Positions 1,419 through 7,075 of a DNA stretch of 25,118 bases are shown here, piece after piece. The stretch's first letter is position 1, and each line of letters opens with the position of its first letter. Position numbers and translations under genes: made by a program. Source of the stretch: a bacterium. Lineage in GTDB: Bacteria; Bacteroidota; Bacteroidia; Bacteroidales; WCHB1-69. The notes beneath the pieces are model-generated. The model saw only the letters and a program-made list of their open reading frames with translations. It ran no database searches and was not told the origin of the DNA. The stretch covers positions 1 through 25,118 of the forward strand of contig CAVIPZ010000002.1 of assembly GCA_963644715.1 (NCBI GenBank), given 5' to 3'.

Positions 1419-1470
1419 GGCGGCAAAAATACAAAAAATGAAGTGTCGTTTTTTTTGTATTTTTGCCGCC
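1419..1470. promoter_or_regulatory. Divergent Bacteroidota sigma-A promoters (pnuC and dsrC) forming a perfect 20-bp inverted repeat
   Basis: ggcggcaaaaatacaaaaaa (1419-1438), 12-nt spacer, ttttttgtatttttgccgcc (1451-1470). TAnnTTTG boxes at 1424-1431 (-) and 1458-1465 (+). Confidence 0.75.
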
Positions 1471-1488: not shown

Positions 1489-1806
1489 ATGGCAAATATT
1501 GAATACGAAGGAAAAACCTACGAGCTTGACGGTGATGGCTTCATGCTTAAGCCCGAAGAGTGGACCGAAGGTCTGGCCGCAGCAATCGCCAAAGCCGATG
1601 GCATTGAAGAACTGAACGAAAGCCATTGGAAGATCATCCGTTGCATCCGCGAAAATTACGAAGAAAAGGGCATTGCCCCGATGGTGCGCGTCATCTGCAA
1701 GACTTCAGGGCTGAAACTGAAAGAGATATACGAACTGTTTCCGTTGGGACCAGCCAGAGGCGCGTGCCGCGTTGCCGGGCTTCCGAAACCGGAGGGCTGC
1801 GTATAA
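1489..1806 (+). CDS. dsrC: DsrC (TusE/DsrC/DsvC family) sulfur-carrier protein with both C-terminal cysteines
   Basis: 105 aa from ATG 1489 (MANIEYEGK...); DGDGFM, GIAPMVR, KLKEIYELFPLGPARGACRVAGLPKPEGCV* with Cys93-X10-Cys104. The track ORF start at 1309 overlaps pnuC and is unlikely. Confidence 0.9.
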   Translation: MANIEYEGKTYELDGDGFMLKPEEWTEGLAAAIAKADGIEELNESHWKIIRCIRENYEEKGIAPMVRVICKTSGLKLKEIYELFPLGPARGACRVAGLPKPEGCV

Positions 1807-1827
1807 GCACAAAAACATAACGCGCTT

Positions 1828-2472
1828 ATGTTGCCAATCCAATATGTTGCCCTGGTTGCAGTCGTGTGCTGCTTCTGCGGGATGGTCGCTTTCTTTGTCA
1901 GAACAGTCAGGTTAGGGAAGCCGAAGGATTTGTCGGAAAAGAGCGGCGACACGGCTAAGGGCATCTTGTATGCCAACACAAAAGCCATGATGCCGCAAAA
2001 CAAGGAGTCTGCATACCTGCACATTCCCTCGTATGTCTCCGGCATGCTTTTCCATATCGGCACTTTCTGCAGTTTGCTCATATTCGTGCTGTCGTTCTTC
2101 CCGTTTTTCGGACGGTGGATGAACAACTTGCCTGTTCTGCGTGTACTTCTTGCGGCGGCTGTGTCTGTGACCTGCTTCTGCGGGTATGCCCTGCTGTTGA
2201 AAAGGGCTTTTTCGAAAGACTTGAAGCCGCTTTCTACCCCCGACGACTATATCTCCAACGCACTGACATCCACATTCCAACTGTTTACCGTGTTGTACCT
2301 GTGCCTCTCGTGCGTTCCGGCTATTGTTGTCCTTTACTATATTGCTTGCTCTCTGCTGTTCTTGTATATGCCGCTGGGAAAATTGAGACATGTCGTGTTC
2401 TATTTTGCAGCACGCTATCACCTCGGCTTTTTCTATGGATGGCGGAATGTATGGCCCAACAATGAAGATTGA
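1828..2472 (+). CDS. NarI/DsrM/TmcC-like membrane cytochrome b subunit
   Basis: About five hydrophobic segments; LFHIG (His76), KR...STPDDY and YMPLGKLRH (His188) are characteristic of the nitrate reductase gamma / DsrM family; 21 nt downstream of dsrC. Confidence 0.7.
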   Translation: MLPIQYVALVAVVCCFCGMVAFFVRTVRLGKPKDLSEKSGDTAKGILYANTKAMMPQNKESAYLHIPSYVSGMLFHIGTFCSLLIFVLSFFPFFGRWMNNLPVLRVLLAAAVSVTCFCGYALLLKRAFSKDLKPLSTPDDYISNALTSTFQLFTVLYLCLSCVPAIVVLYYIACSLLFLYMPLGKLRHVVFYFAARYHLGFFYGWRNVWPNNED

Positions 2473-2493: not shown

Positions 2494-3900
2494 ATGAGAT
2501 TAGATTTTTTAGGCGCCACCGGAGAGGTTACTGGCAGCAAGTTTTTGCTTACCACTAAAAAAGGAACCAAAATATTGCTGGACTGCGGAATGTATCAAGG
2601 CAAAGGACTTGAAACCGACCACATGAACAGAGACTTGGGCTTTGACCCGGCCGAAATTGACATTTTGCTGTTGTCGCATGCCCACATCGACCATTCGGGA
2701 CTCATCCCCTACATTTACAAATTGGGATTCCGGGGCAAAGTGTTCTGCACGCCGGCCACCCGTGACCTTTGCGCTATAATGCTGGCCGACTCCGGACGGA
2801 TACAGGAGGCGGATGCCAAGCAGTTCAATAAGAAGACCTCCCGAATCGGCAAAGAGCCTATAGAGCCAATCTATACGGAGAAAGATGCGGCTGAGTGTAT
2901 GACCCAGTTCGTGAGCATACCGCGGAACCTGAAATTCGACATAATGCCCGACTTTTCCATAGAATTTTTCGAGACCGGGCACATGTTGGGAAGCAGCGCC
3001 GTTTATATCACCTTTAAAGAGGGACGCAAGACGCGCACGCTTTGTTATACGGGCGACATAGGGCGTTACAGCAAGCAAATACTGCCAGACCCCGAAGCCT
3101 TTCCGCCAGCAGACTACATTATCACGGAATCGACTTACGGCGACAGGTTGCACTCAACGCTTGCCGAGGCTGATATGGAATTGGCTATGGTTGTGAAAGA
3201 CGCCTGCGCCAAACGGAAAGGCAAACTGCTCATCCCTTCTTTTGCCATAGGAAGGACACAGGAAATCGTCTATTCGCTGCATAGACTGAAAAAAAGCGGC
3301 AACCTGCCTGACATCGAATGTTTTGTGGATAGTCCGCTGGCATGTTCCGCCACCAACATTTACCGGCTGCATGACGAGAACTTCAACAGCGACATCCGTA
3401 AATTCATGGAGCAGAACAGAGACCCGTTCGGATTCGATGACTTGACGTACGTTCGCACCGTTGAAGATTCAAAACGGCTGAACACCTCAAACCGTCCTTG
3501 CATCATCATATCCGCATCGGGCATGATGGAAGCCGGACGTATCAAGCATCATCTGGCCAACAACATTGAGAACCCGAGGACTACGATTTTGTGTGTAGGC
3601 TACTGTTCTCCCAGCACCTTAGGAGCAAAAATCATGCGCGGCGACAAGAAAGTCTCCATTTTCGGACAACTTTATAACGTAAACGCTCATCTTGCCCGCA
3701 TTGATGCCTATTCAGGACATGCCGACTACAAAGAACTAATCGCCTATCTGTCTTGCCAGAAAGACAACAAGAAACTCAAAAACATCTTTGTCGTACATGG
3801 CGAAGACGAGGCGCGCAACACTTACGTCCAGCACCTTGGCGAGGCCGGATTCAAGCACACATACGTGCCGGTATTCCGCGAAACTGTTGAACTTGTCTGA
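2494..3900 (+). CDS. MBL-fold beta-CASP metallo-hydrolase (YSH1/COG1236-like ribonuclease)
   Basis: FLGATGEVTGS, DCG, SHAHIDHSG, GHMLGS, YTGDIG, ESTYGDRLH, SASGMMEAGRIKHHL, SGHAD, VHGE. Confidence 0.9.
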   Translation: MRLDFLGATGEVTGSKFLLTTKKGTKILLDCGMYQGKGLETDHMNRDLGFDPAEIDILLLSHAHIDHSGLIPYIYKLGFRGKVFCTPATRDLCAIMLADSGRIQEADAKQFNKKTSRIGKEPIEPIYTEKDAAECMTQFVSIPRNLKFDIMPDFSIEFFETGHMLGSSAVYITFKEGRKTRTLCYTGDIGRYSKQILPDPEAFPPADYIITESTYGDRLHSTLAEADMELAMVVKDACAKRKGKLLIPSFAIGRTQEIVYSLHRLKKSGNLPDIECFVDSPLACSATNIYRLHDENFNSDIRKFMEQNRDPFGFDDLTYVRTVEDSKRLNTSNRPCIIISASGMMEAGRIKHHLANNIENPRTTILCVGYCSPSTLGAKIMRGDKKVSIFGQLYNVNAHLARIDAYSGHADYKELIAYLSCQKDNKKLKNIFVVHGEDEARNTYVQHLGEAGFKHTYVPVFRETVELV

Positions 3901-6474: not shown

Positions 6475-6523
6475 CAAACTCAAACAGCAGGGTATGGATT
6501 TCTGCATAAAACATTATTACACT

Positions 6524-7075
6524 ATGAATATTACTTGCATTAAGAATTCTGAAACTACAAACACCTCCAAGATTCTGCTCATCGGCATTGGAACCGCCGG
6601 TTCTTCTGTTGTTCAAACTGCAGCGCAACGACACAATGCTGCTCACCTCAACTGCTATTTGTGCGACGTGCCCGCAGGTTGCGCCAATGAACCCAAACGC
6701 GGACGGAGATACGCTATAACCTTACTTCCCGAACTGGACGAAATGACAAAAGGCTGCATACAAAAGGTTATCCTGATTTCGGCGTTAGGCGGAGGAACAG
6801 GTTCGGGTGCAACACCTTTAATTGCCAATTATTTTGTTGCGAAAGGAGTATCGTTGCATTGTGTTGTTTCTCTTCCGTTTGAATTTGAGGGAGAACACAG
6901 ACAGACCAATGCCAAGTCTGCTGTTTATGAACTTCTGAGTGTCGCTGCCAGCACAAAGGTAATCAATCTCGCCAGGTGTGCCAAGTTTTGCAACCCTGAT
7001 GAACAGTTCGGTACATTTATGGACAAAGTTGACCTGATATTCATTAAGGAGATAGCGTCTTTACTTGATGAATGA
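6524..7075 (+). CDS. Short FtsZ/tubulin-family protein: N-terminal GTPase domain only (about 183 aa; alternative start 6494)
   Basis: ILLIGIGTAG (T1-like), tubulin signature ALGGGTGSGATP, VVSLPFEFEGEHR; ends after a helix-H7-like segment. ATG 6524 has an AT-rich leader with A at -3. Confidence 0.8.
   Translation: MNITCIKNSETTNTSKILLIGIGTAGSSVVQTAAQRHNAAHLNCYLCDVPAGCANEPKRGRRYAITLLPELDEMTKGCIQKVILISALGGGTGSGATPLIANYFVAKGVSLHCVVSLPFEFEGEHRQTNAKSAVYELLSVAASTKVINLARCAKFCNPDEQFGTFMDKVDLIFIKEIASLLDE

Follow-up and report, generated by a model that had tools for sequence, protein, structure and literature searches.

DsrC and the DsrMK membrane proteins are usually treated as parts of sulfite and sulfate respiration. 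DsrABCMK is considered the minimal Dsr set (PMC10504309), and the DsrMKJOP complex reduces DsrC-bound sulfur with menadiol (PMC10861901). For DsrM-1, quinol oxidation on the periplasmic side has been proposed. In a cryo-EM preprint, the cysteine of the DsrK GECGH motif is proposed to relay sulfur between DsrC and the cluster, and the Asp ligand of DsrK was suggested to suit an oxygenated sulfur substrate (bioRxiv 10.64898/2026.08.25.746951). PMC8477390 takes a DsrC hit for a false positive when DsrAB is missing, and passages of PMC10266427 and PMC13232883 mention DsrC for sulfate reduction only. A precedent for menaquinone exchange without energetic coupling is given by the mono-heme EtfD (PMC13083937).

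The present work concerns a window of 25,118 nucleotides, the whole stretch of DNA analysed, which is contig C2 of the source genome (G000; 1.9 Mb, 276 contigs, 89.65% complete); for most of its relatives, the record is that of a Bacteroidales MAG of rumen or gut origin. A sequence-only reading had pointed out in this window a two-cysteine DsrC gene followed by a DsrM/NarI-like membrane gene, here called M, and had proposed a DsrC cycle independent of DsrAB, with scattered dsr genes as the alternative. Our analysis revealed that dsrC and M, together with the genes of an Fe-S protein (K) and of a cysteine desulfurase, constitute a four-gene module without sulfite reductase. Of the readings of this module, a DsrC cycle that runs without DsrAB and is coupled to the quinone pool seems the best, and its sulfur input is pointed to by the fourth conserved gene, the cysteine desulfurase, which lies outside the window.

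The dsrC-M pair and its two products

The M reading frame begins 21 nt past the dsrC stop codon (Table 1) and the surroundings are housekeeping genes (trmH-like, pnuC and a beta-CASP nuclease), both as noted before from the sequence; likewise, no dsrAB or dsrK-like gene was found within the window, and a DsrK-like gene is present elsewhere in the genome (contig C38). The notion that the pair has its own promoter gained support from the element TAnnTTTG, which we take to be the Bacteroidetes-type promoter consensus and which was located 27-40 nt 5' of dsrC in 24/24 loci of the genus. This element was missing in the one out-of-family locus compared, and a scan of the window for sigma-70 promoters and terminators gave counts at chance level, with nothing at dsrC. 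In one gut RNA run a 532-nt contig spanned the dsrC-M junction (1530-2061; depth 4.2, 3 differences), and the remaining window was patchily covered (12/30 bins). Since this run was found using the dsrC-M gene itself and DNA carry-over is possible, the contig is only a hint of co-transcription.

Table 1. Features of the dsrC-M locus, with positions in the window
Feature	Position	Strand	Remark	Basis
TAnnTTTG element	1458..1465	+	31 nt 5' of dsrC	sequence, conserved in genus loci
DsrC	1489..1806	+	105 aa, Cys93 and Cys104, clade-specific Cys70	PF04358, TIGR03342, PDB matches
M, NarI-fold (TmcC/HmcE-like) membrane subunit	1828..2472	+	214 aa; predicted one cytoplasm-side heme via His76/His188	

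Several observations concern the gene context. The beta-CASP metallo-beta-lactamase nuclease gene (2494-3900) begins 21 nt past M, where K sits in intact operons, and is also present in 46/80 related loci. Farther downstream, after tuf, a short ORF (6494-7075, 193 aa) encodes an FtsZ/tubulin GTPase domain alone (PF00091, E 4.5e-18). Two records titled Oscillospiraceae (L032, L033) hold the dsrC-M pair at 86-88% identity and in the same Bacteroidales-type gene context, and are probably mislabelled or mixed bins.

The first product is a two-cysteine DsrC and not a TusE, in agreement with the sequence-only reading: it scored 123.6 bits with PF04358 (E 6e-36, cut-off 24.9) and 104.4 bits with TIGR03342 (cut-off 53.5), whereas the TusE equivalog NF008562 gave 73.7 against a cut-off of 191 bits. 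Its closest solved structures, 2xsj_C (E 1e-35) and 2v4j_C (5e-34), both of them DsrC chains of 105 aa from complexes of dissimilatory sulfite reductase, aligned end-to-end without gaps, which bears out the claimed likeness to Desulfovibrio DsrC in length and Cys numbering. Ten residues lie between Cys93 and Cys104, the two C-terminal cysteines looked for by the DiSCo criterion (PMC8477390). Together with Cys70 they are invariant in 26/26 aligned module DsrCs; E. coli TusE has the final Cys only, the Cys93 equivalent being missing. A branch with SH-aLRT 99 separates the 46 module DsrCs from the one-Cys and the dsrAB-linked rows in a quick tree (93 rows in total); because this tree was built from few columns and contains no rows of Desulfovibrio-type DsrC or TusE, it shows a distinct clade and no origin.

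Members of the DsrC family were present in 108/351 Bacteroidales genomes and belong to two classes, the other of which has one Cys and lies within sqr-DUF1641-dsrE2 clusters; none was found in the remaining 243 genomes of the order, nor in B. thetaiotaomicron. In Bacteroidota the clusters of this one-Cys DsrC/TusE class (L187-L206, L255-L267) comprise Crp/Fnr, type III SQR, DUF1641, the carrier and DsrE2, and both classes occur side by side in some genomes, e.g. G358.

M had no Pfam match, gave only weak NCBIfam scores with HmcE (32.8 bits, cut-off 275) and TmcC (27.9 bits, cut-off 240), and did not match any PDB entry in sequence searches with the single sequence or the profile. Its AlphaFold model (pLDDT 92) contains five membrane helices; E. 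coli NarI occupied ranks 1-8 in Foldseek (prob 1.00, E only 0.03-0.07) and was at the top in VIA-align (Z 10.7, rmsd 5.6, 172 aligned), followed by EtfD (Z 8.8), a Z under about 13 not being decisive for helical bundles. With these modest scores, the model suggests a NarI-family membrane fold, as proposed earlier for this gene. In a multiple alignment H76 and H188 of M correspond to NarI H56 and H205, which are presumably the ligands of the proximal heme; since hhalign of the M profile was not significant (prob 2.4 with NarI and 0.2 with the membrane CCG protein of the source genome), this mapping rests on the fold match and the multiple alignment. In EMO the distal and proximal His are 18 residues apart, which agrees with H56/H205 as the proximal pair (10.64898/2026.08.18.745454).

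At the positions of NarI H66 and H187, M has residues other than His, and its outer loop before the final membrane helix is some 30 residues shorter than that of NarI. Both H76 and H188 are invariant in 224/224 close M homologues, in which the two outer-heme positions are His in 0/224 and 0/224. Among distant homologues (117 full-length sequences of the 150 representatives listed), H76 was found in 117/117 and H188 in 114/117, with His at the outer positions in 0/117 and 1/114. The basic loops of M place H76 and H188 on the cytoplasmic side. The four-His/two-heme pattern of DsrM was therefore not found in M, in which H76 and H188 alone are invariant. Since only the ligands of the cytoplasm-side heme are retained, M is probably mono-heme and non-electrogenic, unlike DsrM. 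Hence, of the description of M as DsrM/NarI-like, the NarI fold stands; energetically M would not be an equivalent of DsrM, because the outer-heme ligands of DsrM and NarI are missing.

A second heme on H65 and H198 was considered. These residues are more than 96% conserved in the 224 close homologues; in the distant set H65 was found in 105/117 and H198 in only 18/117, which led us to reject this heme as a family feature, although it may exist within the close clade alone. Ten distant M relatives that were looked up included one from an Acidobacteriota MAG and one labelled 'nitrate reductase gamma subunit'.

The Fe-S partner, the desulfurase and their co-occurrence

A CCG partner in a genome without dsrAB had been named beforehand as the result that would support the proposed DsrC cycle, and such a partner was found. 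A CCG search of the source genome gave four proteins, of which K (P0003, contig C38) is TmcB/HmcF/DsrK-like. All its scores were below cut-off (TmcB 306/735, HmcF 296/750 and DsrK NF045796 233.4/400 bits), and by these scores K is nearer TmcB/HmcF than DsrK. Besides two CxxCxxCxxxC cubane motifs, K has [G/A]ECGH and a single complete CCG motif whose last residue is Cys; this is the set given for DsrK, HmcF and TmcB (PMC10861901). ECGH and CCG were found in 19/19 operon copies (one ORF call truncated), and the motif set is also present in P0003. The CCG-terminal Cys fits, as we infer, a plain persulfide or disulfide chemistry. Because K and M are below the NCBIfam cut-offs (DsrK, TmcB and HmcF models), their substrate and direction rest on homology. 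The K gene of the source genome has its own TAnnTTTG element, and a K orthologue was inside the fetched locus in 16-17/80 M loci. A plasmid search with K gave one match, unrelated and hydrogenase-linked.

The fourth gene encodes a TIGR01977 cysteine desulfurase, its orthologue in G012 scoring 423.7 bits against a cut-off of 377; the second-best model was the selenocysteine lyase SclA (306.7 bits, cut-off 525). In the source genome this gene spans the break between contigs C88 and C76, whose ends overlap. The motifs EHN, GHK (PLP lysine) and RxGxxC (catalytic Cys) were conserved in 19/19 sequences, and the latter two are also present in the copy of the source genome, which holds a separate SufS-like paralogue besides. 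In five loci (L172, L180, L183, L185 and L254) the operon has beside it another gene of the aminotransferase class V/SufS-like kind, which is longer (465-493 aa). Near the relocated desulfurase there is, in part of the genus, an NAD-dependent epimerase/dehydrogenase gene (L208:128-1078; 9/22 loci of L269-L290), presumably threonine dehydrogenase-like.

The neighbourhood survey confirmed that dsrC and M are co-conserved: dsrC was beside M in 78/80 loci found with M, the gene being less than 200 nt from the contig start in the two misses, and M was beside dsrC in 24/25 loci found with dsrC. In 20 loci from other families the intact operon usually has the order dsrC-M-K-desulfurase, preceded in 11/20 by a small Cys-rich gene; these loci were picked from the top DsrC matches, with M clustered in 15/20 and four M-size gaps unchecked. 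The small gene (about 82 aa; L174:8408-8656 and 10 other loci) is located directly 5' of dsrC, has no Pfam or NCBIfam match and was not found in the source genome.

At the level of the order, the module-type DsrC (E<1e-30) was present in 44/351 Bacteroidales genomes, 30 of them classed by reading the sequence and 14 by score. K was found in 43 of the 351 genomes, all among the 44 DsrC carriers, and a desulfurase orthologue with at least 58% identity in 44/44 carriers (one as two fragments); the other 307 genomes had no K at E<=1e-30, and their best desulfurase match had 44% identity. The distance from K to dsrC is no more than 5 kb in 39/43 genomes, the four exceptions all belonging to the source genus, and that from the desulfurase to dsrC in 37/44. 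The carriers are spread over 25 families, kin among them not being independent, and the full operon also occurs in G568, from another class of Bacteroidota. In the source genus the operon is split and the genes are kept, with DsrC in 23/24, K in 22/24 (one fragment) and the desulfurase in 23/24 sampled genomes. In G328 (C38; L171:6823-8353) dsrC is 53 nt from the desulfurase, with no M or K between, and in G029 (C11:8189-9678) dsrC adjoins the desulfurase directly. Since G328 keeps both genes and K was not found in its genome (95% complete), the DsrC-desulfurase pair may work without the membrane part.

As for the sulfite reductase, dsrA was over cut-off in 0/351 genomes of the order, and NIR_SIR was found in 0/58 carriers, most of them 93-100% complete, the dsrAB-bearing control being positive (1/1). 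These results speak against scattered dsr genes and against a canonical dsrAB set elsewhere in the genome, the latter of which would have brought the locus back to a known pathway. Among the operon neighbours no conserved client gene or multiheme cytochrome gene was found, nor was a conserved rhodanese, DsrE or transporter gene. What is shown for the module comprises the identity of the genes that make it up, the catalytic motifs they keep, the fact that all four occur together, and that dsrAB is missing.

A possible route from cysteine to sulfide

Because dsrC and M travel with K and a desulfurase, and not with a sulfite reductase, the module likely makes H2S from cysteine sulfur. We propose, with confidence slightly above even, that it disposes of electrons by converting cysteine to alanine and H2S, the desulfurase loading DsrC and menaquinol, via M-K, freeing the sulfide. 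A persulfide on Cys339 of the PLP desulfurase would be transferred to Cys104 of DsrC, the desulfurase replacing DsrAB as the DsrC loader. The DsrC persulfide would then undergo reduction on the non-cubane cluster of K via the GECGH cysteine; alternatively, Cys93 would resolve it, yielding H2S and a DsrC disulfide that K would then reduce. By both routes two electrons would be used per cysteine. These would pass from menaquinol to the single cytoplasm-side heme of M and on to the two [4Fe-4S] clusters of K, for a net reaction Cys + 2[H] -> Ala + H2S. Since without an outer heme the M step would move no charge, the module would act as an electron sink, with the energy gain, if any, upstream.

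The source genome contains menA above cut-off (searched in this genome alone), menG, RnfD, four FeFe-hydrogenase matches and mnmA. The search for quinol sinks covered three families: Sdh/Frd over cut-off was found in 0/18 genus genomes, the match in the source genome being NadB, NrfA in 0/18 and cytochrome bd in 0/5. The complex I/NiFe 49-kDa subunit was found in 0/5 genomes. A wider suggestion is that cysteine is a terminal electron acceptor in gut and other anaerobic Bacteroidales, the mono-heme reductase being the main menaquinol outlet for a short respiratory chain in a genus from which fumarate reductase, NrfA and cytochrome bd have disappeared. We advance this tentatively, as possible but short of probable.

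The source genome also holds genes for HdrB-like, HdrC-like and membrane CCG proteins. On contig C85 (1-1424) an HdrB-like gene precedes the start of an FAD protein at the contig end, and contig C146 (1144-3901) contains HdrC-like, small Fe-S and membrane-FeS-CCG genes; together these probably represent an Hdr/Qmo-like cluster, whose products might supply the quinone pool or have DsrC as their target. Contig C265 (L219:1-2134) holds a truncated ORF with siroheme-reductase-like Cys motifs and a C-terminal TusA/YedF-like domain, followed downstream by two siroheme-synthesis-like genes; it escaped PF01077, which gave 0 matches in the source genome. The ORF had no match in three close kin, and its TusA domain alone was matched in 1/5 genomes; as it does not track the module, we rejected it as a module part.

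Several points count against the reduction of cysteine. In E. coli, sulfur goes to TusE through TusA and TusBCD and not directly from the desulfurase. The Cys/Ala+HS- couple lies at about -106 mV, or -59.5 kJ/mol with H2, as estimated from formation energies, and menaquinol at about -70 mV (PMC10861901). The reduction of cysteine by menaquinol is thus marginal, being slightly uphill at standard state unless sulfide is low, and the final sulfur-release step alone may be more uphill than the overall couple; in sulfate reducers, reduction of DsrC-bound sulfur driven by menadiol is nonetheless observed. Furthermore, G328 has DsrC and the desulfurase without K, the operon is broken in the source genus, and the HdrB-like, HdrC-like and membrane CCG proteins of the source genome could also act on DsrC.

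The flow of electrons might also be the opposite. The DsrC disulfide would then be the electron acceptor for a soluble HdrABC-like system during fermentation, M-K would reoxidise DsrC (or sulfide plus DsrC) with menaquinone, and the desulfurase would prime or repair the sulfur on DsrC or K. From thiol to menaquinone is the downhill direction, the mono-heme EtfD, second structural match to M, reduces menaquinone (PMC13083937), HdrB-like and HdrC-like genes are at hand in the source genome, and a DsrC-FlxABCD-HdrABC interaction in fermentative growth is cited by PMC10504309. However, this direction calls for a menaquinol outlet, and none of the three families searched provided one in the genus; A. 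fulgidus DsrMKJOP was inactive with reduced DsrC in the menadiol assay, and a dedicated desulfurase in all 44 carriers exceeds the need for priming. We regard it as rather unlikely.

A biosynthetic relay, in which the desulfurase loads DsrC for tRNA thiolation (TusE-like), a cofactor or an Fe-S client and M-K keeps DsrC reduced or clears excess sulfane sulfur, would be in line with the normally biosynthetic role of desulfurases (PMC13232883), with mnmA in the source genome, with DsrC and TusE forming one family and with the DsrC-desulfurase pair of G328. Yet Cys93, dispensed with in E. coli TusE, is invariant here, and the TusE model remained far below cut-off. The DsrE/TusBCD family (PF02635) had 0 matches in the source genome (89.65% complete), where TusA was found as a fused domain only and the SufS-like paralogue is separate; most genomes of the order, like B. 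thetaiotaomicron, do without a DsrC-family gene, and the module has no conserved client gene beside it. Such a relay seems to us unlikely.

Still less can be said for sulfane sulfur from outside (polysulfide, S0) or selenium, collected by DsrC and reduced by M-K, with the PLP enzyme as a selenocysteine lyase or an accessory. SclA as the second-best model of that enzyme and selD over cut-off in 27/59 carriers point this way; against it, selD was over cut-off in 0/18 genomes of the source genus, the operon has no conserved gene coding for a rhodanese, a DsrE or a transporter, and the cluster that does resemble sulfane handling, with sqr, DUF1641, the one-Cys carrier and dsrE2, belongs to a separate clade, which makes this reading quite improbable. 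Finally, that these are parts of a canonical Dsr sulfite reduction with dsrAB unassembled, as the incompleteness of the source genome, a DsrC closest to the reductive type among solved structures and the C265 ORF with its siroheme-synthesis-like neighbours might suggest, is largely refuted and very improbable given the dsrA and NIR_SIR counts in mostly complete carriers and the near absence of that ORF from close kin.

Relation to known systems

In the literature searched, no description of a dsrC-M-K-desulfurase cassette was found; subscription papers and supplements may mention one. Venceslau et al. 2014 reportedly treats DsrC/TusE/RspA. All the parts of the module belong to known families, and it is their combination and the one-heme pattern that set it apart. 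In roughly one of every eight Bacteroidales genomes sampled (44/351), DsrC and DsrMK-like proteins make up a separate conserved module, for which another enzyme is the predicted feeder. If the conversion of cysteine to H2S is true, the gut would have an H2S route and electron sink that dsrAB surveys miss, and DsrC would have, besides the trisulfide mechanism and for comparison with it, another kind of input in the form of a persulfide and two electrons; if cysteine is moreover a terminal acceptor, this source of H2S, invisible to dsrAB searches, would also be a hydrogen sink in rumen and hindgut. The proposal is testable with four purified proteins.

The module resembles the DsrMK and DsrMKJOP systems in its two-Cys DsrC, its NarI-fold membrane subunit and an Fe-S subunit that carries a pair of cubane motifs, a single CCG motif and the Cys and His of GECGH (PMC10861901; 10.64898/2026.08.25.746951). 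Unlike those systems, its carriers have no DsrAB and the desulfurase is the conserved fourth gene; M is without the outer-heme His and the outer loop of the diheme DsrM, the CCG motif of K ends in Cys and not in Asp as in A. fulgidus DsrK (233 bits against the DsrK cut-off of 400), and the module DsrC has an extra invariant Cys70. With Desulfovibrio Tmc and Hmc (TmcBC, HmcEF) it shares the best NCBIfam matches of K and M, and, as in TmcB/HmcF, K has one CCG motif ending in Cys and T/GECGH (PMC10861901). In contrast to Tmc/Hmc, every model stays under its cut-off, the operon has no conserved gene for a periplasmic multiheme cytochrome, and K and M are associated with dsrC and a desulfurase, their hosts being without sulfate reduction.

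As in the E. coli IscS-TusA-TusBCD-TusE-MnmA relay, a PLP cysteine desulfurase would stand upstream of a carrier of the DsrC/TusE family; unlike that relay, the carrier has two redox Cys, TusBCD/DsrE is missing in the source genome and a membrane reductase pair is attached. The mycobacterial mono-heme EtfD (MsEMO) is similar in its NarI-type membrane domain with the proximal heme only, which is connected with cubane and CCG clusters and with menaquinone in an energetically uncoupled manner. EtfD, however, is a single fused chain, has clusters that are not catalytic and receives its electrons from ETF, whereas M and K are separate proteins and K keeps the catalytic GECGH cysteine.
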